From Candidatus Tantalella remota (lineage in GTDB: Bacteria > Omnitrophota > Gorgyraeia > Tantalellales > Tantalellaceae), in NCBI GenBank assembly GCA_030765685.1, contig JAVCCB010000041.1, positions 75,549 to 139,548 of the forward strand: a stretch of DNA of 64,000 nt. The letters are read 5' to 3'. A model generated the notes under the pieces. The model did no database searches. It was given only the letters and a program-made list of their open reading frames with translations, and was not told the DNA's origin. This document shows, one piece after another, positions 31,520-51,035 of the stretch. Position 1 is the stretch's first letter, and the number at the start of each line of letters is the position of its first letter. A program made the position numbers and the translations under genes.

Positions 31520-31741
31520 TCACAACCCTGCTATCTCTAATAATTTATTCCTGCTTGTCGCGCCGGTTACTATTTTTACGTCTGCTTTACGAACTTTGTA
31601 TTTCTTAGCGATCAGTTTTATGACCGCGGCGTTAGCCTTACCCTTGTCCGGGGCGGCTTTTACGTATACTTTGGTGATACCATCCTTTTCAAGGATCTCA
31701 TTCCTTCCCGCCTTGGGGAAAACTTTTACTTCCAGTTTCAT
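31520..31741 (-). CDS. DUF167/YggU-family small protein
   Basis: 73 aa; VKAAPDKGKANAAVIKLIAKKYKV, typical of UPF0235. Confidence 0.7.
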   Translation of the reverse strand: MKLEVKVFPKAGRNEILEKDGITKVYVKAAPDKGKANAAVIKLIAKKYKVRKADVKIVTGATSRNKLLEIAGL

Positions 31742-33159: not shown

Positions 33160-33413
33160 CCGAGGGCTTTAAAACGGGTCTTTGATCTTGGGTGTTAGGT
33201 GTTGGGGACAAAAACCCGGAACCTGGCCCATGTAATTGGATATCAGGCGATTAGGAGACCGGGGTACCAGGAAAAGAGAAAGGTTCGTCCCTGATATCCC
33301 AATAGCCCGATACCCTGATATCCTTAATTTTCGCAACCAGCCAACAGGATACGTGATACCCATAGCAAGTCCTGTACTCAATACCCGATACCCGATACTC
33401 AATACTATCCCGA

Positions 33414-36400
33414 TTATGCCGCTATAAGTGCTTTTCTTGCGGCCATATTGAACTCTTCTATAGCCTCATAGCTCATTCTAGACGCTTCCGGGAGTACCAG
33501 GACTATATGTCTGAGTACTTTTGCTATACCGCTTGCTGTATCCGGAAGGTCCAGATCGCTGCCAAGCATGAGCTTATACTGATTTTTGATGAACCCGACT
33601 ATCGGGCCGTATGTCATATGCATATCTTCTTCGTTCACGTTCTCGGGGATATTCGACGCTGCAAGAGCGATATTTACCATACCCGTGACCCGGAGAAGAT
33701 ATTCCTCCATGTCACCCTTGGGGACTTCAACATCAACATGCCCTTCCCCCTCAAAATCAGGCGCTTTGCAGTAAACCGCTATGAGGGATTCATCGGATCC
33801 TCTATCACTTGAGAACGGTCTAGCTTTTATATCAGCTTTAGACCTTTTATCCAGAATATCCGCGTACTTGCGTATGATACTTACCTGCGACCTGCTTAGT
33901 TTCGACTGGTCATATTTGATAGTGTATGTCCTGTCTTCCTGAAGCTGAGCGTGAAGCAGATCAATCGCCAAAACCGCCGCCTCCTCCGCGTCTTTAGTAG
34001 TCTCGGGGATTCCCGTGGGTGAGCCTTTGAGGTTCTGCATCTCTGATTCAAGTTTCAGAAATCCCCCGAGAGAACCCCCTTCGGGAATAAATAATCCACG
34101 GCTTAACAAAACTTCCTTTATGTCATCATCTAGGATAAGTTTTTTATCAGGGTTTGCCCCTATCTTGATCAAAACTTTCACGGCAGAGAACACCTGCACA
34201 ACCAGACACTCGTCAAAAGAAGCCATGTCTTTGCCAGGATTAGTTTCGCTCAGAAAACCTTCCCTATCCGTTGGCACAGCTAATCGAATGAATCCCGATT
34301 CGCTTGCCATCTCATGTCCGAGCACACCTCGTATACATTTTTTAGCGCTATCATCGTTAGTGTTTTCAATATTACGTATTACCTCTCCGTCCGGATGTGT
34401 CAACATTCCGCCTGAATGATACCAATACGCTATTGTTCCGTCCTGATAGTAAGTCTCTCCCTCCGGATTCCCAACAGGCTCTTTTGGCAACATTTCCCTG
34501 CTAGGGTTCGCACGTCCATATATAAACTTATTGTCTCCATCCAGTTGCATACTAAATATCGCCGCGTCATCCAATGAACGACTTATACTCTCCGAAAGAG
34601 CGTATCTAAAAGGTCTCTCTTTCCCTGAAAGCGTCTCACTCTCGGACTGGACTTTTATATCCGGAAACTCTTTCGGACGAATAGAACCCTTGGGTTTATC
34701 ACCAAAAGAACTGCTCTCTTCACCCGTTCCCTGCCGCGCCTCGGTGCCTTTATCGGGAAGATCCGCAGGTGAACCTTTGGTTTTTTTCTCCTGTTCTTGT
34801 GCTATTTGAAATCCCGCAGTTACTATATTACCGCTTCTGCCGGGTCCCCCTGAAGGAGTGATCTTATGATAATCCGCTCGTCTTATTATCCCCAGGCCCG
34901 CTCCGCTTCCCTTGCCTCTTGTTCCATTGACTCCGTCCCAAAAATCTATGAAATCCTGAATGTGATCCCTGGGCTTAACGCTGGTATCAATAGGACTTCC
35001 CACATCCACGCCGTTGATCTCTATATATTTCTTACCGTTTTCATGTTTATAACGAATAATAAGAAATCCTCCGGAAGAGTACCTCGAGATATTACTTGAG
35101 ATCTCCCATGCCGTCCTTGCCACACCATTCAAAGGATATTCATCCTCAGGGACCAGAGGATCAGTATTGTTGCCAACGCTTCCAAATACCGTGCTTCCGA
35201 TAGCAGTCATTTCTTCTTCTGTAAATCCTATCCGCTCAACAAAATCCTTATTCGGCCTGCCCGACCATATCGTCTTTATACCTGATACGGAAAACCCGGG
35301 TTGTATTCTACGATGTCGTTGGGGAGCGATAAAAACCACCTTTACATCCGGCATCTGTTTGAGCTTCTTGATGGCGGTTCCCAACTGTTCGTCATCGCCT
35401 TCCAATAATGCTTTCCATGATTTGTTTCGTAGATCTAAAAAGTTTTCCTCCCCGGGAACATCCACACCGAATTTTTCTAAAGCTTTTTCCTCGGCGTCCA
35501 TATTTGTCTCTGGAAGACCCCCGGGTGAGCCTTTGGGTTTTTCACCAACAGAAATACTCTCTTCGCCCGTCCCCTGCCGCGCCTCGGTTCCTTTATCAGA
35601 AAGATCCACGGGTGAGCCTTTGGTTTCCCTTCCGTGTTTCCCGGCTAAGACCTTTATTTCAGTTACGGGCTCATCGGTCAACTCGAACGGTTCTTTTTCT
35701 CCGACGATCACCGGGGACTTTACCGTTCTGAGCAAGATCACATCAGACGGAAAATACTTGAGGTCCGTCTCTTCCAGCGGGTCGTCATAACGCCAGGACT
35801 TCATACCGATAGCTGTTTTGTAATTCCAGTCCCCCTTGATGACCACAAGGTCCAGCTCCGCAAACTCCTTTAATATATCCAGCTTTCCCGCCGCGTACAG
35901 GTCTTCACCATCAGTAAAAGCATCCGTGGCGGTCATCTGAAGGGTCCCGCTCCTTAACGCCTCCTCTAGAGTCACAGCAAGCGACATTGTCTCGGAAGTA
36001 TCCGCCATCGTGTTGATAAAATCGATCAAGCCTTCTTTTGTGACATCGCTTATCATAAACGGCATTTTGCGCGTAAAGAGTTTAACAGTCTTACCTTCTT
36101 CAAGTATCCGTGCCGCGATCATAAGGTCTATCAAAAGCTCCCCGTAATTATCCAGGACTATCCCTACTTTATTTTTTCGCTCCAACAGCTTCACTGCCTG
36201 AGACAGATGCTCGCTCTCTTCCTCCCGGGTAAATAATTTTCGAGCTTCTGCTGCTATGTCGACATTCTCGCTTTTAAGCAGCGAGTCGAACCTGTTAAAA
36301 GACGCGCTGAGCTTTAAAAGCTGTGAGGGCGTCAGGGACTCAAAAAGAGATACATGCTCTCTGTACAGACTTAAAGCAAAACCATTCAACCGGTCGCGGG

Positions 36401-39400
36401 CAGCGCCAAAAGGATCTTCCACAAACCTGCCCGCCGAGCCGAATATCTCTGCCATCGCCCGCGGGTACCGGATCTTTCGAGCCGATCCCGTTCTCACCGT
36501 CTCAGCTTCCTCCCTTTTTATCCTGACTATATTCCTCACCACTTCCGCGGTCGTCTCAAGCTCTCCACGCTCGTTCGTCACGACAAAATCGAATTCCCCG
36601 CTGTGCTCCATCTGATCTTTCGCGTTTCGCATACGAACGGTGATCTCTTCTTCTGTCTCAGAGCCTCTCTTTTTTAACCTTGACGTCAGCTCATCCATAC
36701 TCTCGGCTTTTATGAAAATACTTATATTGTTTTTGGGGAACATCTCCCGTATCTGCCTGGCTCCTTCGGGATCGACATTTACTATGATGTCTTTCCCGCC
36801 GGCTATAAGGTCGTCAATATGATCTTTCTCCAGCCCGCAAAACTCTCCCGGGCGCACTTCCACGTCCTGCAGAAAGGCCCCCTCATCTTCCTTTTCCTTA
36901 AAGTTCTCCTTTGACGTGAAAAAATAATGGACTCCGTCTTCCTCCATCTCCCCCGTTTCAAGAGAACGGGGTTTTCTTGTAGTCGTGCTTACCGCCCTCT
37001 CAAGGCCGGGCAGCCTTGCTGTCAGTTTCGCTATAGCCGCGTCCTTACCAGCACCGCTCGGACCCGATACTATAATGATAAGCGGATCCCCGGCCGGATG
37101 ATTAAAAAGTCCTTTTTCCGCCTCTATTCCGGCCATTTCAAACCCTGCCCTTTTAGCTTCATCACCGGCATTTTTACCTATTATCCCGAAAACTACCGAA
37201 AACGTTTTTCTTATGTCCTCCGCCCAGAAATCTTCACCCGTTACCTGAGTGACAATGGGCTCTCTCTCTGTCTCCGGAACCTCGGCGCCCAGCTTCCGCC
37301 TGCAGTATTTGCTTATGGGAAGATGTATGTCGTCGGCAAGAGCCTCCCACATATCCCTGCCGGCATTCGGGTTCTTCGCGGCCTCGTATCTTACGTCCCT
37401 GTTAACATATCCGGGCAACTGACTTAAAACTACCAGATCCTCATGGTAAGTCGCGCTGTTCCTGGCGGCGAAAAATAAAGGAACCCAGTGCCCCTCTTCC
37501 AGGGATATCCGCAGTACTTCCTTCAGGATGGACGGATCTCTGGATACACTTGCCAGGGTACTTAGAACCGCTTCCGGCGTAGAGTTCTCGGGAAAGGCTG
37601 CCTTCCCGGAGTATGCTTCGTCTATAACAGTGCCAAGATCGTATCCGGAGAGGCCTGATATCCTCCTGCCGCATATATCAAGGATACCGGGCAGATAAGA
37701 ATGAAAAACTGCTATGGCTTCAGCGCGAAAACGTTTCAACTCCACCAAAGGAGGCCCCTTGTCACCATTAGCTTCAATATACTCCCCGCCTATGACCCTC
37801 GTCTCTCGCCCGTAGAACCGCTGGACATCGTCACGAAAAGACAGAATAAAGTCATAATAACGGTCCGCGAATTCCCTATCCTTTTCCGTCAAAGGTATAT
37901 CAAGATATTTCAATGTGCCTAAAAAGAACGAGAAATATTTGAACATTCCCGCGTCATGTTTCAGATTGATGTCCGCGTCGCTTACCCCCCGGGTCCGCTC
38001 CTCCGCTATGAGATTACCCATCGCGAAGAAAAGAGCCGTTTCAGCTTTTTTCGAACGGATCTCTACGGGGGATAGGCCAAGAATATCCCCCAGAGAGGCT
38101 TCAGTTCCAAGCGGTGTAGCGTCAAGTATCATCATCCTATCATAAGGATAATCAATAAAGAGTTCACGCATCTCATCTTTTAAACCGTGCCTTACCTGTA
38201 TGGTCTTGCCGGTAACAATCTTTACAGCGTCAAGAAATGGCCCGATACCCGGGTCTTTCCTGCCGGACTCTACGATAAAAAGATCAAGGTCGGAATAAAA
38301 GTTGGATTCCTCACGGGATACGCTGCCGCTTACAAGAACATCCGTCGAAGGCCTCAGGTAGATCTCTTTCAGTTTCAAAAGGACGGCACGGTCCAAAGCA
38401 GCATACTGCCTTCCCGTTTCCCTTCCTTCGGGCCGTCCTGTCTCGAGAGCCCGATCCCTCACCCTTCCTTTTTCTGAAGCATATTGACGGGCACGTCTCG
38501 CGAGATATGGATCCACTTTCGCGGCGATATTTAAAACATTACCGGGATCTACGGCTAAGACCTCGCCCTGTATTATCTTCCGGTACTCTTCGACCGGCAA
38601 AAATATGGGAATGATCCCGCTCGCGTCACTTTTATCCCCTATCATTATTTCGCTGCCGTTATGCATGAAGAACTGCACCTTCCTGAAGTCTCTTTCCGGC
38701 GACTCTTCCAGGAGATCCCGCGCCTTATTGAGAAAATGATTGAAATCCATATCAATACATACATCGCAGAAAGAAGGAGCTGTCTCCATGAAACGGTTTA
38801 TTTTCTTCTTACGACGTTCCATAAGCGATGTTATCGGGCGGTCCTCGTCCCCGATCTCGCCAAGGTCGATCTTGTCAAGATTTATCCCGTCACGGGCCAT
38901 ACAACACAGCGACTGGGTCGAGTTAGCCAGGACTATTATCCTTGTAGCACCTATAAGGCACTCATCAAAATCCTTCTTTGGCGTATAGGTGACTCCGTAC
39001 GGACCTGCTACCCTGAAATCCGAATCTTCATATCTCTCTCTTGCCTCCTTGAACTTTTTCATCGCCGCCTCCAGAAGATGCGGCTTTTCTTTATAGAACC
39101 CCTGATCGAACGTCTTCCTCACCGCTACCCAGTTCACGCCTGCTTTCTTCATTATCCGTATAAAATCTTCCACTTCACTATGGTTCTCAGGCATTATAAG
39201 GAACGTCGCTCCAATAAGCAGCTCCCCATCCCTTCCCAGTTCATGCCTCTTCTGAGAGATCTTTCCGAGGTTTTCCACCAGTCTGTCGAACGTGAATGCG
39301 CGTTTCTTGGGACGATGCACTTTGACCCTTGTCTCATTGGTAGCTGCGTTGACACTCACTCGTATGTGATCCATATACCGGCTTATTACGTCTATTAACC

Positions 39401-41558
39401 GGTCGTTAAGCCCGTCGCCGTTTGTCTCAAGAGTAAGCTTAAATCCCAGGGCATGGGCATGCGACACTATCTTTAGAAAATTCGGGTTCGTAAGCGGCTC
39501 ACCGCCGCCCGTGAACCTCAGGCTTTTTACGCCCATTTGCGCGAAATCGTCCAGCATCTTAATTCCCTTATCCAGGTGAATTATCTTTTCATGGCTTTTC
39601 CGGAAAGGCGCGTCAAAACACATCACACAGTCGTTGTTGCAAAGATTCGAAATATCAATATCCACCCTGACCGGCGCGATCTCACCCGTAACCAGATGTT
39701 TTCTTAAACCCTCAATAAACTCCAGCGGATCTTCGGGACAGAACTTTGACGCGTTGGTCCTGAACAGTGATATCCGTTCGCCGTCAAAAGCGGCCATCCC
39801 GTCCCAGTTATTAAAATCACTCACTACCGACCTGTGACCAGATACAGAATTCTTAGTTTTACGGACAATTTTTTCGATGAGTTCTTTTACTTCTGGACGC
39901 TTATCTTTAGGAATATTGTAACGATGAAGAGGACGTTCCTCTCCCTTTTCTCCGACCTGTAGACGGATTTCACTTACAGACTTTATTAAACCCTTTACTA
40001 AGTCCGCAGAAAAATTCATTATTGTGTCGTTAAATCGATAGTGGCTGGTTTTTTCGGCGGGAACGAATATTCCCAGGTCTTTGAGTATCTCGAATTCCTT
40101 AGCGACTGTTCTTTTAGCGAACGGCCTTATCTCGGTCATTTCGCGGACGGATATCCCCTCCCCGCTTAGCGCCTTAGCAAGAAGCCCTTCATCATCCCTT
40201 ATCATCTCCAGAAGATCCGCGGGTGAACCTTTGGGAACATTCTGATCCAATGTTTCTCTATTTATTTTATTTCGTAAAATCACCATATTCCCCGTCTGTG
40301 AAGCTTTCCGATGTATACTATCCACTTCTTGCATATACCACATTCCTTGTCCAGCCCCACCGCTTGCTGTCACGCCGTATCCGCCCCATGCCGCTTCCAT
40401 ACCATTCGCAACTCTCTCATCATTCGTAACCCATCTCGTGCTCATTGGACCATTTCCCTTATCAACACTGCTGGCCTCAACAAAATCCTGTTCAAACCGG
40501 ATAATTAAAAATCCTTCAATTGCATGTTGCCATATATTTCGAGCTAGTTCTTGTATTGCCACGGCCATTTTATCAGGCCGCTTCATGCCGTGGTCATTCG
40601 TATATACACCGATCATGTCAATTTCTTCATCTGTCAAACCGATTTTTTGAAGTGCCTGGATAGGAGACTCTGTGAATGCGTTAAGGTGCGCTATATCCTT
40701 TAGTCCCAATCTCTCACCCAATCCTGATTTATTACCGGTATTGCGTGCTGAGGAATAAAAAACTTTAGCATTATGGTCTTTTTCCATTATATTAATGATC
40801 TCTCGAATCCTATCTTCATCCCTTTCTTCTTTTCTTACCTCGCTCCACAATTCTTTCCGCAACTCCGAAAATCTCTTTTTTTCGGGCTTCACTTTCTTGC
40901 CGCTAACCTGATAAAACCTCATCCCGCTGTTTCGAGCAAGACGTATCTTCTCATTCCTTCGGCTCGCTTCCCAAAACTCTCCAGTAAAATAATTGTGTTT
41001 GTTGGCGTTAATAACAGGCTCTATTTTATTAAGGAAGATAGCGTCTTCGAACGGAAGCTCGCCGCGCAAAATAACTCCTTCATTAAGAAGTATCAGCCAT
41101 TCGAAAGCCTTAGCGACCGTGTCGTTCACATAAAGGTTCAGGGGAAGTTCGTTAGTACGGGCGGGCGGAAAGTTATTTAATATTACTTCTTTAATACCCT
41201 GGTATCTGAATCTCTCCTTCTTCTTGAGTATCTGCATCAACGCTTCTATGTCCTCGTGAAGAACGGACCGGAGGAATGTTATGTCATCCGCGGCCATATT
41301 CTCATCTATCAGATATTTGCCGGAAGAAAGAAGAAGACATTTAGCGTCGTTATTATCAAGAAGTCTCCTAGCATCGTCGGAATCGGCTAACCTGACATTG
41401 GAATGCCTGTAAAGCTCGGCAAGGACTTTCCTTTTGACAATAGGATTTTGGGCGGCGGGAAGCGTACCAAGACCATAACTGAACGTGTTCAATGAAAACG
41501 TCAGAATAACGATTAATGATATGGTTTTTTTCAGTACTCTCTTCATTTTCCTTCCCAA
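33414..41558 (-). CDS. giant 2714-aa multidomain protein of unknown function (signal anchor, GHKL-like, radical SAM/SPASM-like, GlnE-like nucleotidyltransferase, guanylate kinase, DUF89-like phosphatase, second GHKL-like segment, long C-terminal region)
   Basis: Single stop-free 8145-nt ORF. N-terminus MGRKMKRVLKKTISLIVILTFSLNTFSYG. CNNDCVMC (CxxxCxxC) at aa 640-647 plus downstream cysteine pairs. GSVSREESNFYSDLDLFIV at aa 1078-1096. GPSGAGK...TTTRKPR...EDGVHYFF at aa 1499-1546. VLDNYGE...VIKGDWNYK at aa 1802-1914. Recurrent KGSP linkers. Confidence 0.8.
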   Translation of the reverse strand: MGRKMKRVLKKTISLIVILTFSLNTFSYGLGTLPAAQNPIVKRKVLAELYRHSNVRLADSDDARRLLDNNDAKCLLLSSGKYLIDENMAADDITFLRSVLHEDIEALMQILKKKERFRYQGIKEVILNNFPPARTNELPLNLYVNDTVAKAFEWLILLNEGVILRGELPFEDAIFLNKIEPVINANKHNYFTGEFWEASRRNEKIRLARNSGMRFYQVSGKKVKPEKKRFSELRKELWSEVRKEERDEDRIREIINIMEKDHNAKVFYSSARNTGNKSGLGERLGLKDIAHLNAFTESPIQALQKIGLTDEEIDMIGVYTNDHGMKRPDKMAVAIQELARNIWQHAIEGFLIIRFEQDFVEASSVDKGNGPMSTRWVTNDERVANGMEAAWGGYGVTASGGAGQGMWYMQEVDSIHRKASQTGNMVILRNKINRETLDQNVPKGSPADLLEMIRDDEGLLAKALSGEGISVREMTEIRPFAKRTVAKEFEILKDLGIFVPAEKTSHYRFNDTIMNFSADLVKGLIKSVSEIRLQVGEKGEERPLHRYNIPKDKRPEVKELIEKIVRKTKNSVSGHRSVVSDFNNWDGMAAFDGERISLFRTNASKFCPEDPLEFIEGLRKHLVTGEIAPVRVDIDISNLCNNDCVMCFDAPFRKSHEKIIHLDKGIKMLDDFAQMGVKSLRFTGGGEPLTNPNFLKIVSHAHALGFKLTLETNGDGLNDRLIDVISRYMDHIRVSVNAATNETRVKVHRPKKRAFTFDRLVENLGKISQKRHELGRDGELLIGATFLIMPENHSEVEDFIRIMKKAGVNWVAVRKTFDQGFYKEKPHLLEAAMKKFKEARERYEDSDFRVAGPYGVTYTPKKDFDECLIGATRIIVLANSTQSLCCMARDGINLDKIDLGEIGDEDRPITSLMERRKKKINRFMETAPSFCDVCIDMDFNHFLNKARDLLEESPERDFRKVQFFMHNGSEIMIGDKSDASGIIPIFLPVEEYRKIIQGEVLAVDPGNVLNIAAKVDPYLARRARQYASEKGRVRDRALETGRPEGRETGRQYAALDRAVLLKLKEIYLRPSTDVLVSGSVSREESNFYSDLDLFIVESGRKDPGIGPFLDAVKIVTGKTIQVRHGLKDEMRELFIDYPYDRMMILDATPLGTEASLGDILGLSPVEIRSKKAETALFFAMGNLIAEERTRGVSDADINLKHDAGMFKYFSFFLGTLKYLDIPLTEKDREFADRYYDFILSFRDDVQRFYGRETRVIGGEYIEANGDKGPPLVELKRFRAEAIAVFHSYLPGILDICGRRISGLSGYDLGTVIDEAYSGKAAFPENSTPEAVLSTLASVSRDPSILKEVLRISLEEGHWVPLFFAARNSATYHEDLVVLSQLPGYVNRDVRYEAAKNPNAGRDMWEALADDIHLPISKYCRRKLGAEVPETEREPIVTQVTGEDFWAEDIRKTFSVVFGIIGKNAGDEAKRAGFEMAGIEAEKGLFNHPAGDPLIIIVSGPSGAGKDAAIAKLTARLPGLERAVSTTTRKPRSLETGEMEEDGVHYFFTSKENFKEKEDEGAFLQDVEVRPGEFCGLEKDHIDDLIAGGKDIIVNVDPEGARQIREMFPKNNISIFIKAESMDELTSRLKKRGSETEEEITVRMRNAKDQMEHSGEFDFVVTNERGELETTAEVVRNIVRIKREEAETVRTGSARKIRYPRAMAEIFGSAGRFVEDPFGAARDRLNGFALSLYREHVSLFESLTPSQLLKLSASFNRFDSLLKSENVDIAAEARKLFTREEESEHLSQAVKLLERKNKVGIVLDNYGELLIDLMIAARILEEGKTVKLFTRKMPFMISDVTKEGLIDFINTMADTSETMSLAVTLEEALRSGTLQMTATDAFTDGEDLYAAGKLDILKEFAELDLVVIKGDWNYKTAIGMKSWRYDDPLEETDLKYFPSDVILLRTVKSPVIVGEKEPFELTDEPVTEIKVLAGKHGRETKGSPVDLSDKGTEARQGTGEESISVGEKPKGSPGGLPETNMDAEEKALEKFGVDVPGEENFLDLRNKSWKALLEGDDEQLGTAIKKLKQMPDVKVVFIAPQRHRRIQPGFSVSGIKTIWSGRPNKDFVERIGFTEEEMTAIGSTVFGSVGNNTDPLVPEDEYPLNGVARTAWEISSNISRYSSGGFLIIRYKHENGKKYIEINGVDVGSPIDTSVKPRDHIQDFIDFWDGVNGTRGKGSGAGLGIIRRADYHKITPSGGPGRSGNIVTAGFQIAQEQEKKTKGSPADLPDKGTEARQGTGEESSSFGDKPKGSIRPKEFPDIKVQSESETLSGKERPFRYALSESISRSLDDAAIFSMQLDGDNKFIYGRANPSREMLPKEPVGNPEGETYYQDGTIAYWYHSGGMLTHPDGEVIRNIENTNDDSAKKCIRGVLGHEMASESGFIRLAVPTDREGFLSETNPGKDMASFDECLVVQVFSAVKVLIKIGANPDKKLILDDDIKEVLLSRGLFIPEGGSLGGFLKLESEMQNLKGSPTGIPETTKDAEEAAVLAIDLLHAQLQEDRTYTIKYDQSKLSRSQVSIIRKYADILDKRSKADIKARPFSSDRGSDESLIAVYCKAPDFEGEGHVDVEVPKGDMEEYLLRVTGMVNIALAASNIPENVNEEDMHMTYGPIVGFIKNQYKLMLGSDLDLPDTASGIAKVLRHIVLVLPEASRMSYEAIEEFNMAARKALIAA

Positions 41559-41827
41559 ATGTTAGGCCAACTTTTTAAAAGCATTTAGTAAGTTTGGTTA
41601 AAAAAAGTACACCTCTATCGCATCCCCACTCCTAAGGAAATGCGGCTATGTACTTAGATCAAACCTGCAAATTTTAATGAACAAATGTATTTGCTTCTCT
41701 TGAGAACCTCTATTCCTCACAAAGGGTACTTCTCCCCTATTAGACCATTATAGCAGAAGTAATGGTTAGGTCAAGAAAAAGTTAAATACCTATTGTTTTC
41801 TTAACTTATCCACACCCCTCCTTCAGG

Positions 41828-42019
41828 GACGTTTGTCATTTTAAACCTGGGGCGTAAATAATTTTAATTCTAGACCTGTCCCTCCTGCTATTTTCAAGTC
41901 CTTTTCCACTCCCTAAAGCTTGATAAATATCAATTTTATAGCTAAAAATATGGCTGGGGACAGGCCTAGACACAAAATTAGGGACGGGTCTGGGATTAAA
42001 TCGAGAAACGTCCCTAAAA
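41828..42019. promoter_or_regulatory. array of five GGGAC(A/G)KKTCT-like motifs in both orientations, in the spacer upstream of the giant gene
   Basis: gggacgtttg (41828), agacctgtccc (about 41869-41883, inverted), ggggacaggcctaga (41956), gggacgggtctgg (41981), gaaacgtccc (42004, inverted; overlaps the ftsA stop). The second and third copies form an inverted pair about 85 bp apart. Confidence 0.35.
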
Positions 42020-43066
42020 GTAGCGTTCGATGAAGGAAAGGGCTCTATTTATGCCCCTTTTGAGGAGATTGCCCTCAAGACGGGTTTTCTGCCTGTTTAT
42101 GTGCAGGCAGTCGAGTATGCCGAGGCTTCCTATATATCCGGTCCTGTCCGGAGGAAGGTCCTCAAAAGGACGGGATATACATATGCCGGTTTTTACGGGG
42201 ATAGTAAAACTATGTTCCAACAGTTCCACCATATCGTGCATGAGGGCCCCTCCCCCGACGATAATTATCTTCCTCGCTTTTCCCCACGCGGGCAGGGTGG
42301 TTATCTTCGGGACCAGCTCTTCGAGCTTCTCACCATCAAGGGTGCCGTTATCCCTGATAATATCTCCCGTGCCAGTATTAAAGACCTTGCAGCCGTCAAG
42401 TATGCCTCTGGTAAAGATCATAACTTCCATCATATCCCTGCATATGTCTATCAGCGCCACGCCTGATTCCCTGTCCTCGGGACTCAGCACCCTGTGCGCC
42501 GCGGCAAAACCGGTAAAGACAAAACCCGCCGGCAGAAAACCTGCCTGGGATATACATTTTGACATATTCTTCACGACGGAAGAATCTATGGTAAGGATGT
42601 TGACCCGGGATTCAAGCTTAACGCCCTCAAGGTTACGCGGGTTCTTTATCTCATCTTCCCCGTCCAGGGAAAACCCTTTTACTATCCTGTGAAGGGGCTC
42701 CTTCTCTAGGGGTATCTTCGCGGCGGAGCCGATCTCGACGCACCTTTTAACGTCCCTCTCCGTCACTTCCCTGCCGTATTTTGAAAGGAGCAAAGAACCG
42801 GAAGAAAGCATGAGCTTTACAGAGCTTGAGCTGACCGCGGTATAAACGTCCTCTATCTTTTTGCCGGTCTTTTCCCTGAGCTTATTGAGGGCTCCGGCTA
42901 TAGAATCTGTGGCCATCGCAGCGTCAACGACTATACCCTTGCGAAAGCCCTTGGCATCCACGCGGCAGAACCCGTCAGGGACATAATCACCGTTTTTGGT
43001 CCAACTCGCGCTCACCAGGAATATACCGTGATACCCCGCGTCCATTACCGCAAAATGACCGCCCAT
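42014..43066 (-). CDS. ftsA: cell division protein FtsA (short form, 350 aa)
   Basis: Actin fold with a 1C-subdomain-like insertion, KIIIVGGGALMHDMVELLEHSF, downstream of ftsQ. Confidence 0.8.
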   Translation of the reverse strand: MGGHFAVMDAGYHGIFLVSASWTKNGDYVPDGFCRVDAKGFRKGIVVDAAMATDSIAGALNKLREKTGKKIEDVYTAVSSSSVKLMLSSGSLLLSKYGREVTERDVKRCVEIGSAAKIPLEKEPLHRIVKGFSLDGEDEIKNPRNLEGVKLESRVNILTIDSSVVKNMSKCISQAGFLPAGFVFTGFAAAHRVLSPEDRESGVALIDICRDMMEVMIFTRGILDGCKVFNTGTGDIIRDNGTLDGEKLEELVPKITTLPAWGKARKIIIVGGGALMHDMVELLEHSFTIPVKTGICISRPFEDLPPDRTGYIGSLGILDCLHINRQKTRLEGNLLKRGINRALSFIERYF

Positions 43067-43081
43067 ACGCTGCGTGTGCTC

Positions 43082-43954
43082 CTATTTCTTCTTGAGAGAG
43101 ATGACTGCCGGTGCCCCGAACCTGAGATCGATATATTTTATATCTTCCATCTTCATCTTCGGATCCGACATGACTTTTTTGAGTTCCACGATCTTTTCTG
43201 AAAAATCATCGGTGCCCATTTTAACGATGACACCGGATATCCCGAGGACTATGTTCTTCCTGTCGGAGATATCTATGTACTCGATCTGTTTTTTATACCC
43301 GCTCATCTTCTTGTTAAGACCATCCAGAAGAACAAGAGCCTGGGCCAGCGACCTGTTATCTACCTTATCGCCCCGGGAAGGCGTATTAATGAAAAAGTTC
43401 AACCCTTTTATTTTTACAAGCGTTCCCTTCGTCTGGCCTATCGAGAGGACAATACCCTCAGAATCTATCACGATTCCGCCCGCCGTGTCTATGACGGCTG
43501 CCGGCAGACGGGATATGATGTCCACCTCTATAGTGTCCGGCATCCTTCTGCGCACTTCCACTTTTCGGAGCTGGGGATAATCGCTCTTTATAACGGTGCG
43601 CACCTGTTTAAGGTCCACCTCGAATATATTCCTTCCCTTGTACAGTTTTTTCAGCCTGCTCTCCCCCTTCCAAAAAGAATAGTCCCTGTCCTTATTGACG
43701 ACTATCTCCTTTACAGCAAAAAAACGGCTGTTCGTAAAAAAATACCATATACCATACGTACTACCCGCTATAAGCGCGCCGCAGATGATACCCACGAGTA
43801 TGACCTTAACCGGCAACCCGCTGCCGCGGGAAGCGGATGCTCTCTTTTTTTTCTTCTTTGGCTTCTTTACAGTCCTTCTTTTTGCCACAACGTGTTCTCC
43901 TTTCGACCGTTCAACTTTCCTTGCGGGCCAATGCCCCCAGAAGCATCTTAACAC
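43082..43954 (-). CDS. ftsQ: FtsQ/DivIB (POTRA domain) cell division protein; annotated start overlaps ddl, true start probably internal
   Basis: Basic cytoplasmic N-terminus, single TM, POTRA-like FFAVKEIVVNKDRDYS, between ddl and ftsA. Confidence 0.7.
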   Translation of the reverse strand: MLRCFWGHWPARKVERSKGEHVVAKRRTVKKPKKKKKRASASRGSGLPVKVILVGIICGALIAGSTYGIWYFFTNSRFFAVKEIVVNKDRDYSFWKGESRLKKLYKGRNIFEVDLKQVRTVIKSDYPQLRKVEVRRRMPDTIEVDIISRLPAAVIDTAGGIVIDSEGIVLSIGQTKGTLVKIKGLNFFINTPSRGDKVDNRSLAQALVLLDGLNKKMSGYKKQIEYIDISDRKNIVLGISGVIVKMGTDDFSEKIVELKKVMSDPKMKMEDIKYIDLRFGAPAVISLKKK

Positions 43955-44840
43955 ATAATCCTAAAAAATCCACCCCCGCCGCGCCGGCCGCCATCGGCAG
44001 TAGGCTTCGTTCCGTAAGGCCGGGAATGGTATTGACCTCAAGAACATACACTTTCCCGTCCTCCGACAACCTCATATCGACCCTGGAAAAATCCTCACAC
44101 CCGAGGACGTTATGCGCTTTGAGTCCCGCGTCCTGCGCTTTTAGATAGGCCTCACTCTCCAGTTCAGCGGGAACGACGTATTTGGTATCTCTTGAATGAT
44201 ATTTCGCCTCAAAATCATATATCCCTTCGGCGGGCAGGATCTCAACGACCGGCAGGGCCTTCCCATCGAGCACTCCTACCGTTATCTCTCTGCCCGGGAT
44301 AAACTCTTCTATGATTATATCTTCATCGAACTCCGCAGCGATAGACACAGCTTCGTCCAGCAAGCTTTTCTTCTCCACCACCGACAGGCCGACACTCGAC
44401 CCCTCAAACCTGGGTTTTACGACACACGGCACAGCCGCCTCGACTGGTACCGGATGATCGCGTTTGGCTACCTTATATCCCGGTATGTTCAGCCCCTTTT
44501 CCTCGAAAAGCTTTTTCGAAGCAAGCTTGTCCAAAGCCAGATGGGACGCTTCAGGTCCGGATCCGGTATAAGGCACTCCTTCATCCTCCAGCATCCGCTG
44601 AACGGTCCCGTCCTCCCCGAACCTGCCATGCAACGCTATAAAAACCACGTCTATGCCGGCTTCCTCTACCACGCGCATAAAAGGATCTTCATTTACCTCG
44701 ATAAAAACCGGGTCAAACCCCGCCCCCTCCAAAGCTCCCTGGACAGTTCTTCCGCTTTTAAGGCTTATCTCCCTCTCACTTGAAGGTCCACCGGCAAGAA
44801 TACCTATTTTGTATTGTTTTAGCTTATCAATATCATTCAT
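43911..44840 (-). CDS. ddl: D-alanine--D-alanine ligase
   Basis: 309 aa ATP-grasp; FIALHGRFGEDGTVQ and C-terminal EVNTIPGLT motifs. Confidence 0.9.
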   Translation of the reverse strand: MNDIDKLKQYKIGILAGGPSSEREISLKSGRTVQGALEGAGFDPVFIEVNEDPFMRVVEEAGIDVVFIALHGRFGEDGTVQRMLEDEGVPYTGSGPEASHLALDKLASKKLFEEKGLNIPGYKVAKRDHPVPVEAAVPCVVKPRFEGSSVGLSVVEKKSLLDEAVSIAAEFDEDIIIEEFIPGREITVGVLDGKALPVVEILPAEGIYDFEAKYHSRDTKYVVPAELESEAYLKAQDAGLKAHNVLGCEDFSRVDMRLSEDGKVYVLEVNTIPGLTERSLLPMAAGAAGVDFLGLCVKMLLGALARKES

Positions 44841-44976: not shown

Positions 44977-45894
44977 TCACAATATCCTAATCTCCGACTC
45001 GAGATCTACCGAAAATTTTTCTTTTACTTCCTTCCTTATGTCGTACATAAGAGACATCACGTCAGACGCCTTCGCTCCTCCGGTATTTATAATAAAATTA
45101 GCGTGTTTTTCTGATACTCTGGCTCCCCCGTGAGAGCACCCCTTCATTCCCGCGGCATCTATCAGCTGTCCGGCGGTCTTTCCCGCCCCTTCGGGATTGC
45201 GAAATATGCATCCCAGACTTTTACCATCAAGGGGCTGTTTCTCCATCTTCTCAACAAAATAATTTTTAAGCCTTGATTCAAGCTCCCTGGGGTCCTCTTC
45301 TTCAAACTCGAAAACCGCTTCCGTTATAACATCTTTCTCGTCGCTAAGCGAAGACCAGTGCCAGGCGAAATCTATTTCCCTTTTACCTACCCACCTCGCC
45401 TCCCCGTCCGGATCCATTACTCTGACACGTACAAGCATATTGCTTACCTCCGTACGGTAGGAAGCGTTCATAAACACCGCGCCGCCCACCGTCGCGGGTA
45501 TACCCACAAGACCTTCCAGCCCGGCAAGGCCGTTGCTGCACGTCGTGGAGATGAGATCCGGCAGGGACACCCCCGCCCGTGCCATTACCATCGTATCTCC
45601 CAGGTCCTCTTCCATAAAATACTGGCTGTTAAGTTTGATAAGAACGGTCTCCAGGTCCGCGTCAGGAAAAAGGATGTTACTCCCTCCGCCAACGACCATA
45701 CTTCGTACTCCCCTCTCGGTCAAAAGCCTAATAAGACCGGCTAAGGTCTCTTCGTTCCTCGGCTCTATCCAGACCACTCCGCGGCCTCCGACCTCGATGG
45801 CGCTGCGCGGAGCCAAAGGCTCACCGAAAAATATGATATCCCCGACCTCTCTGCAATACTCCTCAATAGCGTTCCTGTCACTATCCGTTATCAT
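44977..45894 (-). CDS. murB: UDP-N-acetylenolpyruvoylglucosamine reductase
   Basis: 305 aa FAD-binding; GGGSN and C-terminal MurB motifs. Confidence 0.85.
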   Translation of the reverse strand: MITDSDRNAIEEYCREVGDIIFFGEPLAPRSAIEVGGRGVVWIEPRNEETLAGLIRLLTERGVRSMVVGGGSNILFPDADLETVLIKLNSQYFMEEDLGDTMVMARAGVSLPDLISTTCSNGLAGLEGLVGIPATVGGAVFMNASYRTEVSNMLVRVRVMDPDGEARWVGKREIDFAWHWSSLSDEKDVITEAVFEFEEEDPRELESRLKNYFVEKMEKQPLDGKSLGCIFRNPEGAGKTAGQLIDAAGMKGCSHGGARVSEKHANFIINTGGAKASDVMSLMYDIRKEVKEKFSVDLESEIRIL

Positions 45895-47260
45895 TCCTGG
45901 CCTCGTTTATTTCTTTAAGTACGGGAAGCGCTATTTCCCTTATGTCCCCCGCTCCCAGTATAAGTACAGTATCGTTCTCCTTGGCAATTTTTGAGATATA
46001 CCCCGGGATCATGTCCTTTTCGACAAAACCGAACATCTCAAAATCCTTTTTGTCCATCCTTTCCCATATATCGCGTATCCCCACGCCTTCGGTGGGGTCT
46101 TCGTGGGCCGAATAAACATCCGTCATAATAAGAACGTCCGCGTCAGAAAAGCATCCCAGAAAATCTTCCGCCAGATCATTGGTCCTTGAATGGCGGTGCG
46201 GTTGAAAGACCGCCACTACCCGCCCCTTCGTGTACCCCTTCGCGGCGCGTATTACCGCCGCCAGTTCGGTCGGATGATGCGCGTAGTCTTCTATTACCTC
46301 TATGCCCCCGGAACTTCCCACGACGTCGAACCTTCTGCTTACTCCCGGAAAGGTCCGCACCGCGGACGCGATGTCTTCGACCCCGACACCCGCCTCTATG
46401 CTGACGGCGGCGGCACCAAGTATATTCATCAAGTTATGCCTTCCCAAAAGAGAACTTTCTATTCTTCCCAACCTGCTGCCCGCGAAAAACAACTCAAAAG
46501 ATATGGACCCTTCCCAGTTCTGGTCCTCGCATGTCACGTCAAAATCCCCTTCTATGCCGAAACTTGTAGTGCGTGCCCTCGCGCCGTCAACAAGGCCCGA
46601 AAGAACCCGATCCTCTCCGTTATAAAAGATCATCCCGTCGCCGGATACGCGTCCGGCAAACTCACGATACGCGCCATGCAGGTTCTCTATGGTCCCGTAG
46701 TTCTCCATATGCTCGCGTTCAACATTAGTTATCAGGCCATGAGTGCATCCTATCTTTCTGAAGAACCCGTCGCTTTCATCTACTTCAGCCACCAGGATAT
46801 CCTCACCCCCGCACTTCGCGTTACCCCCCATTTCCCGGACCTCTCCGCCCAGGACAAAGGTAGGATTTCTGCCACTCTTTTGCATTATATAAGATATCAG
46901 AGACGACGTTGTCGTCTTTCCGTGGGTACCCGTGACAGCGATAGAGACGGGCGCCTCGCTCATCAAAAGTCTCAGGAGCTCCCCCCTGGTTATGACCTGT
47001 ATATCAAGTTCCCTGGCCTTTATCATCTCCGGATTGGAGTCTCTTATGCAGGAAGACACTACGACAAGGTTGGCATCCTCGGGGATATGACCGGAAGCAT
47101 GCCCTTGAAAAATAGTCACTCCTCTTCCGGCCAGGTCTTCAGTCAGATTGTTGAGTGTGAGATCCGACCCTGACACGGTAGCGCCCTTTTCCACCATGAT
47201 CTGAGCCAAAGCGCTCATACCGATCCCGCCGATCCCTATAAAATGTATCTTCTTTTTCAT
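45881..47260 (-). CDS. murC: UDP-N-acetylmuramate--L-alanine ligase
   Basis: 459 aa; HFIGIGGIGMSALA N-terminus, Mur ligase GTHGKTTT P-loop. Confidence 0.9.
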   Translation of the reverse strand: MKKKIHFIGIGGIGMSALAQIMVEKGATVSGSDLTLNNLTEDLAGRGVTIFQGHASGHIPEDANLVVVSSCIRDSNPEMIKARELDIQVITRGELLRLLMSEAPVSIAVTGTHGKTTTSSLISYIMQKSGRNPTFVLGGEVREMGGNAKCGGEDILVAEVDESDGFFRKIGCTHGLITNVEREHMENYGTIENLHGAYREFAGRVSGDGMIFYNGEDRVLSGLVDGARARTTSFGIEGDFDVTCEDQNWEGSISFELFFAGSRLGRIESSLLGRHNLMNILGAAAVSIEAGVGVEDIASAVRTFPGVSRRFDVVGSSGGIEVIEDYAHHPTELAAVIRAAKGYTKGRVVAVFQPHRHSRTNDLAEDFLGCFSDADVLIMTDVYSAHEDPTEGVGIRDIWERMDKKDFEMFGFVEKDMIPGYISKIAKENDTVLILGAGDIREIALPVLKEINEARNDNG

Positions 47261-47280
47261 AATGGTATTTAATTTTATCA

Positions 47281-47334
47281 GGTTAAGGTTAAGGTTAAGG
47301 TTAAGGTTAAGGTTAAGGTTAAGATACAGCCTCT
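47281..47334. repeat. hexanucleotide microsatellite (GGTTAA)9
   Basis: Nine perfect tandem GGTTAA units between the murC start and murG stop, followed by (CCCTTAT)3. Confidence 0.9.
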
Positions 47335-47364
47335 TCCTATATTTTATCCCTCAACCCTTATCCC

Positions 47365-48492
47365 TTATCCCTTATCCCTATTTTCCACCAACTTCATTAC
47401 TTCTCCCGCAAGCACCTCTGCGGCATCCGGGACACTCAGGGCCCCCGCAGCTTTCGAGAGGCGTTCCCTTTCATCTTCTCTCTCCATCATATTAAGTATA
47501 TCATCATACAGGCTCTCCGGAGTAAGGTCTTTCTCCTCCCGGCATATAGCCGCGCCCTTATCAGCGAAATACTCAGCGTTCGAACGCTGGTTGTTCTTCG
47601 GATTCGGATAAGGCACCAAGATCATGGGTTTCGCGTAATACGCCAGCTCAAACACCGCCGCCGCCCCGGCCCTGCTTATCGCCATATCACTTGCCGCGTA
47701 AGCATCTTCTATTTTTTCAAGGAACGAGAACACTCTGCCCGGGATACCGTTCTCACTGTAAAAAGCCGACACGCTCTGGAGGTCTTTCTTTCCCGTAAGA
47801 TGTATGAACTGCACCCTGAGATCCTTATCCCGCGCGATACGACGCGCGGCTTCAGAGACCGTTCTGTTCAGAAAAGAAGCTCCCTGGCTTCCTCCCATAA
47901 CAAGTATCGTGAACTTTTCCGGGGAAACCCCCAGCGCCCGGGCGGACGCTTCCCTGTCCCGGGACAAAGAACCGGTCCTCAAAGGATTGCCTGAAAATAT
48001 TACTTTTTCCTTATCACAGGAAAACTGTTCCTCCGACCCCTTGAAACTGACGGCTATTTTATCCGCAGCTCGGCACAGGATCCTGTTCGCCCTTCCGGGC
48101 ACAAGGTTCTGCTCGTGTATAAGTAAGGGAATACCGAAGATCTTCGCGGCTCTGGCTATCGCCCCGGAAGAATATCCGCCGAACCCCACCACCGCGTCGG
48201 GCCTCAGCGAGACTATAATACAGAAAGACGCCACCGTATCCATCGCGAGTTTCAGAAAAAACGTAATAACACGCACGGGGGCGAACTTTAAAGGCATGGG
48301 GTTTATCGATAAAAAGAAACACCTGTAGCCGGTTTCTTTCAGGATGTCCCGGTCAAGGCGCCTTTTGCTGGATATGAAACAGATCTCTCCGGCGTTTTTC
48401 TTTTCCAGTTCCGACGCCAGCGCGATAGCCGGGAAAATATGCCCTCCACTTCCACCGGCTGCCAGTATTATCCTTTTATTATGTCCGTTCAT
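47365..48492 (-). CDS. murG: undecaprenyldiphospho-muramoylpentapeptide beta-N-acetylglucosaminyltransferase
   Basis: 375 aa GT28; AAGGSGGHIFPAIALA N-terminus. Confidence 0.85.
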   Translation of the reverse strand: MNGHNKRIILAAGGSGGHIFPAIALASELEKKNAGEICFISSKRRLDRDILKETGYRCFFLSINPMPLKFAPVRVITFFLKLAMDTVASFCIIVSLRPDAVVGFGGYSSGAIARAAKIFGIPLLIHEQNLVPGRANRILCRAADKIAVSFKGSEEQFSCDKEKVIFSGNPLRTGSLSRDREASARALGVSPEKFTILVMGGSQGASFLNRTVSEAARRIARDKDLRVQFIHLTGKKDLQSVSAFYSENGIPGRVFSFLEKIEDAYAASDMAISRAGAAAVFELAYYAKPMILVPYPNPKNNQRSNAEYFADKGAAICREEKDLTPESLYDDILNMMEREDERERLSKAAGALSVPDAAEVLAGEVMKLVENRDKG

Positions 48493-49574: not shown

Positions 49575-49659
49575 GTTTTATTATAGATTTCGGATTACAG
49601 ATTTCAGATAGGATCTGCCATCTGCAATCTGACATCTGTTATCTGACATCCACTTTGGG

Positions 49660-51012: not shown

Positions 51013-51035
51013 ATATAAGATTTTTACTTTCTGGT

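Follow-up and report, generated by a model that had tools for sequence, protein, structure and literature searches.

The window analysed here, a stretch of 64,000 nucleotides (contig JAVCCB010000041.1, positions 75,549 to 139,548), belongs to the Omnitrophota bacterium Candidatus Tantalella remota. It contains a dcw cluster whose ORFs run on the minus strand from 58817 down to 42014 (Table 1). A preliminary description of this DNA gave the collinear order mraZ-rsmH-ftsL-ftsI-murE-murF-mraY-murD-ftsW-murG-murC-murB-ddl-ftsQ-ftsA, and the same order is obtained from Pfam matches. The expected genes were all assigned in this way except the 119-aa FtsL candidate, which has no match in Pfam or NCBIfam and is named by its position only. 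On the far side of a giant gene that follows ftsA, the proC, yggT and yggU genes are found where that description had placed them, as judged by Pfam, TIGR00251 and the annotation of relatives. Beyond them lie MTAP, ileS, a dksA-type gene, lspA, lgt and rluD. The elongasome genes mreBCD-pbp2-rodA are located 20 kb away from the dcw cluster. Together with murA and all the mur genes of the dcw cluster, they show that MreB and the peptidoglycan machinery are kept within the window. A genuine PilM gene is also present in the window (2280-3305).

Table 1. Coordinates of the genes and regulatory features in the 64,000-nucleotide window. Promoter and terminator assignments are consensus matches only.
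Feature	Position	Strand	Basis
mraZ, first gene of the cluster	58380-58817	minus	Pfam MraZ 5.1e-38
rsmH (mraW)	57032-57916	minus	Pfam Methyltransf_5 3.9e-106
ftsL candidate, 119 aa	56676-57035	minus	position only, between rsmH and ftsI
ftsI (PBP3-type transpeptidase)	54956-56644	minus	Pfam Transpeptidase 7.9e-82 and PBP_dimer
murE-to-murB block as a whole	44977-54948	minus	
murE	53494-54948	minus	Pfam Mur ligase domains; told from murF by gene order only
murF	52097-53473	minus	Pfam Mur ligase domains; told from murE by gene order only
mraY	51036-52124	minus	Pfam Glycos_transf_4 and MraY_sig1
murD	49660-51012	minus	Pfam Mur ligase domains
ftsW	48489-49574	minus	Pfam FTSW_RODA_SPOVE 3e-110
murG	47365-48492	minus	Pfam Glyco_transf_28
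murC	45881-47260	minus	Pfam Mur ligase domains
murB	44977-45894	minus	Pfam MurB_C
ddl	43911-44840	minus	Pfam Dala_Dala_lig_C 1.9e-51
ftsQ	43082-43954	minus	Pfam POTRA_1 and FtsQ_DivIB_C
ftsA orthologue, 350 aa	42014-43066	minus	Pfam SHS2_FTSA (PF02491) 1.4e-14
Terminator-like hairpin overlapping the ftsA stop codon, then UUUUGUG	41975-42018	minus	fold -16.1 kcal/mol, z -2.3; inverted repeat I24
Non-coding spacer between ftsA and the giant gene	41547-42013		455 bp (TTG start) or 467 bp (ATG start)
Sigma-70-like promoter of the giant gene: TTGACC, 16 nt, TGcTATAAT	41747-41774	minus	11/12 consensus, extended -10
Giant gene, 2710 aa	33414-41546	minus	Pfam domains; 100% identical NCBI protein of Ca. 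Tantalella remota
proC promoter-like element: TTGACA, 17 nt, TAATTT, TG upstream	33131-33159	minus	conserved in relatives
proC	32320-33123	minus	Pfam P5CR_dimer 3.6e-33
yggT	32022-32318	minus	50-73% identity to genes of relatives annotated CCB3_YggT
DUF167/yggU	31520-31741	minus	TIGR00251 DUF167 1.3e-23
Elongasome cluster mreB, mreC, mreD, pbp2, rodA	17430-22859	minus	Pfam MreB_Mbl 3.2e-150, MreC, MreD, Transpeptidase, FTSW_RODA_SPOVE

The last gene of the cluster encodes a protein that is annotated as a "hypothetical protein" in NCBI. According to PF02491 and an AF2 model, it is an FtsA orthologue with an actin-like fold in which 1C (SHS2) is inserted in place of 1B. The model has a pLDDT of 89, and its best PDB folds are all FtsA, with E values from 5e-29 to 1e-22. 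The possibility that the 350-aa protein is a PilM paralogue was rejected from the ranking of the folds, the profiles matched and the place of the gene in the operon. Against TIGR01174, the protein reaches 158 bits, below the cut-off of 175.85, and only positions 4-234 of the 371 model positions are aligned. In subdomain 2B, a deletion was mapped from the sequence, the profile alignment and the AF2 model. Approximately 55-60 residues of this subdomain are missing, and approximately 35 remain. Residues 242-309 of V. maritimus FtsA have no counterpart in the orthologue, and the deleted blocks include the helix that bears R300 and E303 in E. coli FtsA. Canonical FtsAs align with the family profile only as far as approximately position 238 and then again in a second stretch. 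In all 30 family members, the spacing from the phosphate-2 motif to the adenosine motif is 60-65 aa, compared with 118-126 aa in six canonical FtsAs. The 2B subdomain of FtsA is the binding site of the C-terminal peptide of FtsZ (review PMC8998562).

The ATP motifs of the orthologue are also degenerate. Across the family, the phosphate-2 motif DIGGGT (DxGGGT) is replaced by D-I-c-k-D-L-T-E, and the adenosine motif reads G-E-G-A instead of the canonical GGGA. A C-terminal amphipathic membrane-targeting helix is predicted to be kept. In silico, this helix, LLKRGINRALSFIERYF, has a muH of 0.73 and a net charge of +3 and resembles the membrane-targeting sequence of E. coli FtsA; F345, Y349 and F350 are invariant across the family. 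All related loci that were recovered carry a conserved FtsA orthologue. Among the best 150 matches from 1.84 billion proteins, the short form is seen in approximately 35 full-length representatives of clusters at 50% identity. No description of a 2B-truncated FtsA was found in the literature, and it is the one undescribed feature here.

The absence of ftsZ from its place after ftsA and of a tubulin signature from the giant protein, both pointed out in the preliminary description, extends to the whole 64 kb. A tblastn search of the window with E. coli and B. subtilis FtsZ gave nothing below E=0.75. When the six-frame ORFs of the window were all searched by FtsZ HMM under --max, there were zero matches, and the positive control, locus L004, was recovered at 6.8e-197. 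The pattern [SAG]GGTG[SAT]G occurs in no frame of the window. The query sequences used for E. coli FtsA and for both FtsZ proteins performed as expected against controls. L004 is an outgroup, and its role was limited to that of a positive control for the FtsZ search; when its FtsZ was used as a query, the named proteins among the best 120 matches were all from Zixibacteria, a result that has no bearing on Omnitrophota. An ftsZ gene was not found by HMM within approximately 10 kb of ftsA in any of 39 related Omnitrophota genomes, and the unfiltered FtsZ HMM had zero scoring matches across the window and approximately 0.7 Mb of related loci. These loci were retrieved via two family-specific peptide patterns, and the sample consists of Omnitrophota genomes that carry both motifs rather than the whole phylum.

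The lack of ftsZ in Omnitrophota is already known and is not new here, because Seymour et al. (2023) and Pende et al. (2021) both report the phylum to be without it. Genome-wide and phylum-wide absence is taken here from their marker-gene surveys of MAGs. The supplementary text of Seymour et al. describes ftsZ as lacking in Omnitrophota. Pende et al. state in a figure legend that FtsZ is absent in Omnitrophica, and their supplementary table gives FtsZ=NA for four of five Omnitrophica genomes, three of which have an FtsA match. The type MAG of Ca. Tantalella remota is 98.2% complete. The literature is not unanimous, since PMC12283558 places Omnitrophota among the phyla with "highly conserved" dcw genes; the ftsZ column is not given there. 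The phylum is unmentioned in the supplements of a 2025 iScience paper. The loss is still little known, and a 2025 paper on PVC cell division keeps the phylum with the FtsZ-bearing ones.

Two options had been left by the preliminary description, namely, that ftsZ was relocated or that the organism divides without FtsZ, the latter being regarded there as of taxonomic interest. The phylum surveys and the loss of 2B residues from FtsA favour the second. It is highly improbable that the T. remota genome carries a standard ftsZ outside the window and that the cells divide conventionally. The window covers 64 kb of a genome of approximately 2 Mb, MAGs are incomplete, the dcw genes of the phylum have been called conserved, and "Omnitrophica bacterium OLB16" has FtsZ. 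However, no FtsZ was recorded in most of the genomes surveyed by Pende et al., and a functioning FtsZ-FtsA pair is hard to reconcile with the loss of the FtsZ-binding part of 2B in 30 of the 30 aligned family FtsAs. A very divergent FtsZ or tubulin, bound by the remodelled FtsA via another surface, is highly improbable. PVC bacteria can have unusually divergent FtsZ proteins, such as that of V. spinosum, and every absence call so far is sequence-based. Nevertheless, even the unfiltered HMM was silent in the window and the related loci, and there is no report of such a protein.

The region between ftsA and proC is occupied by the giant gene and its spacer. The length of 455 bp first given for the spacer is correct for a TTG start of the giant gene (33414-41558). 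The ATG at 41546 is the likelier start, because it has a GGAAGG ribosome-binding site and agrees with the 2710-aa NCBI protein, and it extends the spacer to 467 bp. The ORFs in the spacer are all 45 aa or shorter, and there is no FtsZ remnant or similarity within it; Rfam gave zero matches from 33000 to 43200. A long-range stem is formed by 41869-41884 and 41957-41972 (z -4.26). The proC promoter-like element recurs upstream of proC in the related loci L001, L003 and L005, and this promoter and a short GGGACAGGTCT palindrome are all that the spacers of the window and those of relatives have in common.

The giant protein combines radical SAM, nucleotidyltransferase-like (NTP_transf_2), guanylate kinase and ARMT1/DUF89 domains with a weak match to a His-kinase-like ATPase (HATPase). 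Its N-terminus, MKRVLKKTISLIVILTFSLNTFSYG, reads as hydrophobic and anchor-like. Only residues 1-218 and 2519-2710 are common to other giants (homologues of 1.5-4.2 kaa), and these homologues sit in unrelated neighbourhoods. The gene is absent from the closest relatives with long contigs, and its tetranucleotide and codon usage match those of its flanks. No convincing direct repeats or att-like sequences flank it, and none of the window's annotated ORFs was recognised as a transposase or integrase.

The usual order in the sampled relatives is ftsQ, ftsA, an intergenic region, proC, yggT and yggU. Among the 39 related genomes, 33 were informative, and in 23 of these ftsA directly adjoins proC. 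The "slot" is simply empty in relatives, since this adjacency is combined with the lack of ftsZ near ftsA in all 39. In other species, the same junction took in unrelated long or secreted-protein genes. Unrelated long ORFs follow ftsA in L013/L015, L024/L033 and L037, and L028 has a short open-ended repeat ORF. Across groups, the long ORFs are not homologous to one another, and homology between them and the giant protein was considered and rejected by blastp and tblastn.

The preliminary description had placed the giant gene in the ftsZ slot, and the implied link to the missing ftsZ is not supported. It is extremely unlikely that the giant protein serves as a scaffold for division in place of FtsZ or SepF, which would account for its location after ftsA. 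The gene follows ftsA directly on the minus strand, its product appears to be membrane-anchored at the N-terminus, and several other species have long ORFs at the junction. However, most informative relatives lack both the giant gene and ftsZ, the junction ORFs elsewhere are unrelated to it, its domains are those of metabolic enzymes (radical SAM, guanylate kinase, ARMT1 phosphatase), homologues with its terminal modules adjoin unrelated genes, and it has its own promoter past the terminator-like hairpin. Given this promoter, the native composition, the relatives without the gene, the homologues elsewhere and the unrelated ORFs at the junction, the giant gene is an incidental insertion and not a replacement of FtsZ. 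It matters only as an instance of a recurrent insertion site at the operon boundary.

A chimeric contig join at the AT-rich spacer is likewise extremely unlikely. The contigs of the closest relative stop just past ftsA (L007 and the 3-kb contig of P0001), which indicates that assemblers are prone to break here, and the spacer contains inverted repeats. However, the window has zero N and a continuous GC skew, and the tetranucleotide correlation is 0.83-0.90 between the giant gene and its flanks and 0.85-0.91 between the flanks. The two halves of the ancestral neighbourhood flank the gene, correctly ordered and oriented, and the proC promoter is undamaged; in independent assemblies of other species long ORFs begin 130-270 bp past ftsA. 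The misassembly that the preliminary description had named as a possible objection left no apparent sign, because there is no N and the composition of the giant gene is like that of its flanks.

The best explanation, held with considerable confidence, is that the locus is the end of an FtsZ-less Omnitrophota dcw operon with a remodelled FtsA and an incidental giant gene. Directly observed were the order of the genes, the lack of ftsZ in the window and related loci, the source organism, the fold of FtsA with its deletion, and the motifs of the promoters and the terminator. What the FtsA variant does and how the cell divides are inferred. The region represents the 3' end of the dcw operon of a PVC-group bacterium. 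Nothing seems to have pushed ftsZ out, and the gene would simply be missing. The site at which the gene for the modular multi-enzyme protein was inserted lies between the terminator-like hairpin that closes ftsA and the promoter of proC. Division would be FtsZ-independent, and the remodelled FtsA may organise the kept divisome (FtsQ, the FtsL candidate, FtsW and FtsI) from the cytoplasmic side. With 1C and the predicted membrane-binding helix kept, and the part of 2B that binds the FtsZ tail and the glycine-rich ATP loops lost, this variant would act as a membrane-tethered adaptor and not as a Z-ring anchor. The mreBCD-pbp2-rodA cluster belongs to the context, since it is a candidate for the role of organiser where FtsZ is lacking, and the adjacent MreB system possibly works with the FtsA variant, as in Chlamydiae.

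A broader interpretation is put forward tentatively, with slightly less than even confidence. Omnitrophota may represent a third, undescribed type of FtsZ-less division, in which FtsA was turned, via the loss of FtsZ-binding 2B and with 1C and the membrane helix kept, into a membrane-tethered organiser of the septal synthase FtsQLB-FtsWI that works without FtsZ and probably without nucleotide. The possible importance of the locus lies in a full dcw operon that ends in an FtsA without the FtsZ-binding subdomain. If confirmed, it would be a natural experiment on the functions of FtsA that outlive the Z-ring, such as membrane tethering and the contacts of 1C with late divisome proteins. It would also provide a concrete protein to localise in the sole Omnitrophota enrichment culture, Ca. 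Velamenicoccus archaeovorus.

There are several known systems with which these components can be compared. Canonical FtsAs from E. coli, T. maritima and S. aureus (PDB 7Q6D, 4A2A and 3WQT) share the slot after ftsQ, the 1C fold and a basic amphipathic C-terminal helix, and they are the best structural match to the model (TM 0.7-0.79). The orthologue differs from them in its shortened 2B, the missing R300/E303 helix, the degenerate ATP glycine loops and a score under the TIGR01174 cut-off. PilM of type IV pili also has an FtsA-like fold but matches the model less well (E 4e-18 and TM of approximately 0.55, against 5e-29 and 0.7-0.79 for FtsA), and it belongs to the pil operon, whereas the 350-aa FtsA gene belongs to the dcw operon. 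The giant protein, which is from class Gorgyraia, resembles the modular giants of Omnitrophota (Nielsen & Lui 2026 preprint, and West-Roberts et al. 2023 as cited by them) in that it is long, N-terminally anchored and built of successive enzyme domains, among them radical SAM and histidine-kinase-like ATPase. At 2.7 kaa, it is far smaller than the giants of at least 10 kaa catalogued in the preprint, whose contexts are secretion or pilus genes, glycoside hydrolases and transposases; a dcw-adjacent site is not among them.

Among FtsZ-less bacteria, Planctomycetota belong to the same superphylum and divide by budding or binary fission without ftsZ. They have no ftsA, their dcw cluster is fragmented, and many mur genes are gone in several orders (PMC12283558), whereas in Ca. 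Tantalella remota the whole cluster, from mraZ to ftsA, is present and collinear. The joint loss of ftsA and ftsZ that is typical of Chlamydiae and Planctomycetota is not seen here, and an FtsA orthologue is present. Chlamydiae are PVC bacteria that lack ftsZ and, as in the present case, keep peptidoglycan genes, FtsQ/L/W/I-type proteins and MreB (PMC7029139, PMC12283558). Their septal peptidoglycan synthesis is MreB/RodZ- and FtsK-dependent (PMC7029139, PMC12283558). In contrast to Chlamydiae, which lost ftsA as well, Omnitrophota have a remodelled FtsA that closes an intact collinear dcw operon.

The dcw cluster of the window runs collinearly from mraZ to ftsA, as the preliminary description had it, and Pfam assigned its genes in order, with ftsL placed by position (see table). 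All substantial genes of the window are carried on the minus strand, and the proC, yggT and yggU genes lie on the far side of the giant gene, in agreement with the same description. Judged from the ORF at its position, FtsL of the Candidatus Tantalella remota lineage would be either very divergent or replaced. The PC4 (transcriptional coactivator p15-like, ssDNA-binding) ORF just upstream of the cluster adjoins a PilZ-domain ORF. Elsewhere in the window, a type IV pilus cluster (pilT, pilC, pilins, pilM, pilO) contains two tandem PilB-type ATPases and, after them, a distinct 149-aa ORF made up solely of an MshEN domain.

Features of the window discussed in the text, with positions where assigned
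Feature	Positions	Strand	Basis or details
dcw genes, in order	58817 down to 42014	minus	Pfam
MraZ, RsmH (first two dcw genes)		minus	Pfam
ORF at the ftsL position, 119 aa	56676-57035	minus	position; no Pfam or NCBIfam match
FtsI, then two Mur ligases		minus	Pfam; murE and murF by position
MraY, MurD, FtsW, MurG, MurC, MurB, Ddl, FtsQ (in order after murF)		minus	Pfam
FtsA-type protein, 350 aa	42014-43066	minus	Pfam; SHS2 (1C) domain of FtsA the only significant match
Long-range stem in the spacer	41869-41884 with 41957-41972		z -4.26
Putative giant-gene promoter, near-consensus	41774-41747		TTGACC, 16 nt, TGcTATAAT
Giant ORF	33414-41558	minus	probable start ATG 41546
Giant-protein domains			radical SAM, guanylate kinase, ARMT1/DUF89 phosphatase
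Giant-protein weak matches			nucleotidyltransferase; histidine-kinase-like ATPase
Putative proC promoter element	33159-33131		TTGACA, 17 nt, TAATTT, TG ahead
proC, yggT, DUF167/yggU, MTAP-type phosphorylase, ileS (3' of giant gene)		minus
dksA-type zinc-finger gene, lspA, lgt, rluD, murA, mreBCD-pbp2-rodA (further 3')
PC4-domain ORF, 113 aa	59851-60192	minus
Two tandem full-length PilB-type ATPases, 570 and 575 aa	8096-12002	minus

The reported lack of ftsZ was confirmed over all 64 kb. The E. coli and B. subtilis FtsZ sequences gave no tblastn match to the window better than E=0.75. The FtsZ HMM, run without filters on all six-frame ORFs of at least 40 aa, found no match (positive control, 6.8e-197). 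The tubulin signature was absent from the giant protein, as stated earlier, and from every frame of the window. The same question was put to 39 organisms, represented by three long metagenomic or MAG contigs and by 36 GTDB species-representative genomes located from the alignment of the short-FtsA family, with FtsA identities of 36-90%. None of the 39 had FtsZ within about 10 kb on either side of ftsA (tblastn E<=1e-3; HMM with --max; about 0.7 Mb under the HMM, window included), and the search detected the canonical ftsA-ftsZ pair of the Zixibacteria outgroup. In 23 of them, ftsA is followed after a gap of 27-666 bp by proC-yggT-yggU-MTAP-ileS, the very genes found 3' of the giant gene in the window; ten carry other content, and six loci stop too near ftsA for the downstream gene to be judged. 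An empty "slot" is thus the ordinary state among these relatives. Many of the "binchicken" co-assembly MAGs among them (L007-L042) are titled "uncultured Planctomycetia bacterium" at NCBI, and the dcw/ftsA locus of these GTDB representatives is of the Omnitrophota type.

The absence of ftsZ is already documented for the phylum. An Omnitrophota species described from Ace Lake (Antarctica), Candidatus Tantalella remota is assigned to the family Tantalellaceae (GTDB SKK-01) of the order Tantalellales, class Gorgyraia (GTDB Koll11); its type MAG is 98.2% complete, with about 2.0 Mb in 96 contigs (Seymour et al. 2023, tables). The supplementary text of that study covers species representatives from a 421-genome data set, this MAG included, and on FtsZ it names one protein, 89% identical to an archaeal sequence and hence a contaminant or a recent transfer. 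A figure legend of Pende et al. (2021) lists Planctomycetes, Omnitrophica and Chlamydiae as lacking FtsZ. Of the five Omnitrophica genomes in their table, four have NA for both FtsZ and SepF, and three of those four show an FtsA match; FtsZ is given for "OLB16" only. Rivas-Marin et al. (2016) considered that the absence might be due to incomplete data. Omnitrophota were later put, without detail, among phyla with "highly conserved" dcw genes (PMC12283558, 2025), and fts genes go unmentioned in a 2026 preprint on 176 complete genomes (Nielsen & Lui). The statements of Seymour et al. and Pende et al. mean that the absence has been published, though little noticed. Between the two options first proposed, a relocated ftsZ and division without FtsZ, the second is very probably right for Candidatus Tantalella remota in light of this literature.

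What has not been described is the accompanying FtsA, since literature searches returned no description of its short form. A profile of 30 family members matched solved FtsA structures at 2.4e-41. The AlphaFold2 model of the 350-aa protein (pLDDT 89, pTM 0.86) best matched FtsA of Vibrio, E. coli, S. aureus and T. maritima (E 5e-29 to 1e-22; TM 0.7-0.79) and matched PilM clearly worse, which sets that identity aside. By profile and predicted structure, the protein is an FtsA. It scores 158 bits against the NCBIfam model TIGR01174 (cut-off 175.85), over model positions 4-234 only, which probably explains the "hypothetical protein" annotations at NCBI. Its homologues are all of about 350 aa; those with a named source are labelled Candidatus Omnitrophota or Omnitrophica, and most of these have that annotation. 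An exhaustive search of 1.84 billion cluster representatives with the family profile gave, in its best 150 hits, about 35 full-length proteins (343-361 aa) aligned over the whole profile, as well as fragments. The remaining hits were canonical FtsAs of 400-450 aa, typically aligned to about position 238 only or resumed in a second stretch.

In V. maritimus FtsA, residues 9-241 and 310-360 are the counterparts of profile positions 4-238 and 246-295, which leaves about 68 reference residues unmatched. MAFFT placed the loss in two blocks, roughly E. coli FtsA 240-269 and 300-333 (with "EPRY" at 298-301 as expected). The second block includes R300 and E303, residues implicated in FtsZ binding. The phosphate-2 aspartate and the adenosine-motif glycine are 60-65 residues apart in each of the 30 aligned members and 118-126 apart in six canonical FtsAs. 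By these alignments the family has lost most of subdomain 2B, to which the conserved C-terminal peptide of FtsZ binds (PMC8998562, review). The ATP motifs are degenerate family-wide (DIGGGT to D-I-c-k-D-L-T-E; GGGA to G-E-G-A). Most of the invariant residues lie in the 1C domain. A basic amphipathic helix is predicted for the C-terminal 17 residues (muH 0.73; net charge +3; F345, Y349 and F350 invariant), similar to the membrane-targeting sequence of E. coli FtsA. In these Omnitrophota, FtsA is a discrete short form of 343-361 aa in which 1C and the C-terminal helix are conserved.

The giant gene does occupy the position after ftsA, as first noted; the implied tie to the loss of ftsZ is not supported, and in most relatives proC directly follows ftsA. 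The insertion is incidental and the association coincidental. A contig join at the junction had been considered. The window contains no Ns, GC skew is continuous, and tetranucleotide and codon usage of the giant gene and its flanks are as alike as those of flank and flank, all of which argues against a chimeric join; the flank-like composition also argues against a recent foreign origin. The protein is identical over 2710 aa to the NCBI "ARMT1-like domain-containing protein" of Candidatus Tantalella remota, which is encoded on a 151-kb contig. Its modules are joined by repeated "KGSP" ("KPKGSP..L") linkers, and the domain set is consistent with the multi-enzyme class among the long proteins of Omnitrophota. 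Omnitrophota homologues of 1.5-4.2 kaa (P0184-P0197) have in common with it only the first ~218 and the last ~190 residues (41-61% identity), and their middles hold different enzyme domains, as if conserved end-caps bracketed swappable cargo. Three homologues with the terminal modules (L043-L045) lie in unrelated neighbourhoods.

Other long genes have entered the same junction. On the strand of ftsA, long ORFs with a hydrophobic N-terminus come next in L015, which has a homologue in L013 (at least 1666 aa for the two together), in the pair L024 and L033 (46% identical to each other, at least 1319 aa) and in L037 (at least 3261 aa, WD40 and AAA_5 domains). L028 has an open-ended short repeat ORF and L008 two small ORFs, likewise with hydrophobic N-termini. 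These groups lack homology to the giant protein and to each other. In different species, genes for long or secreted proteins, from at least four groups unrelated to one another, start 130-460 bp past ftsA, which makes the dcw operon/proC boundary a recurrent landing site. No flanking repeats were found around the giant gene, and no recombinase that would explain the insertions was seen among the annotated ORFs.

The probable ATG start is preceded by a GGAAGG ribosome-binding site and yields 2710 aa, as many as the NCBI protein has. The previously described spacer of 455 bp holds for the TTG start and becomes 467 bp with the ATG; it contains no ORF above 45 aa and no Rfam match. Motif matches at the junctions comprise a hairpin over the ftsA stop codon (-16.1 kcal/mol, then UUUUGUG), a promoter about 240 bp further on and the element kept beside proC, which relatives also have upstream of proC. 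These matches suggest that the ancestral intergenic region was split and that the giant gene forms a transcription unit of its own. The -10 hexamer of proC ends about 7 nt short of ATG 33123, so the mRNA from which proC is translated may have little or no leader; TTG 33159, the start called by the ORF finder, is probably spurious. The palindromic GGGACAGGTCT element forms the long-range stem in the spacer, and a like hairpin lies just past ftsA in L005 (~11096-11141), where FtsA identity is only 48%. It may be a conserved terminator or a REP-like element.

Candidatus Tantalella remota and its relatives thus lack ftsZ, by the present searches or by the literature, and retain the full gene set for peptidoglycan synthesis and the late divisome, together with a 2B-less FtsA and the MreB elongasome. 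In actin-like proteins, 2B also contributes to nucleotide binding and filament contacts. The loss of 2B and of the glycine loops suggests, speculatively, an FtsA that is non-polymerising and nucleotide-independent. Its role as Z-ring anchor would have been lost, and it could act as a membrane-bound adaptor whose 1C domain touches the cytoplasmic tails of late divisome proteins; in E. coli, 1C binds FtsN (work cited in PMC8998562). Site selection and constriction would then depend on septal peptidoglycan synthesis, perhaps with guidance from MreB, as in Chlamydia (PMC7029139).
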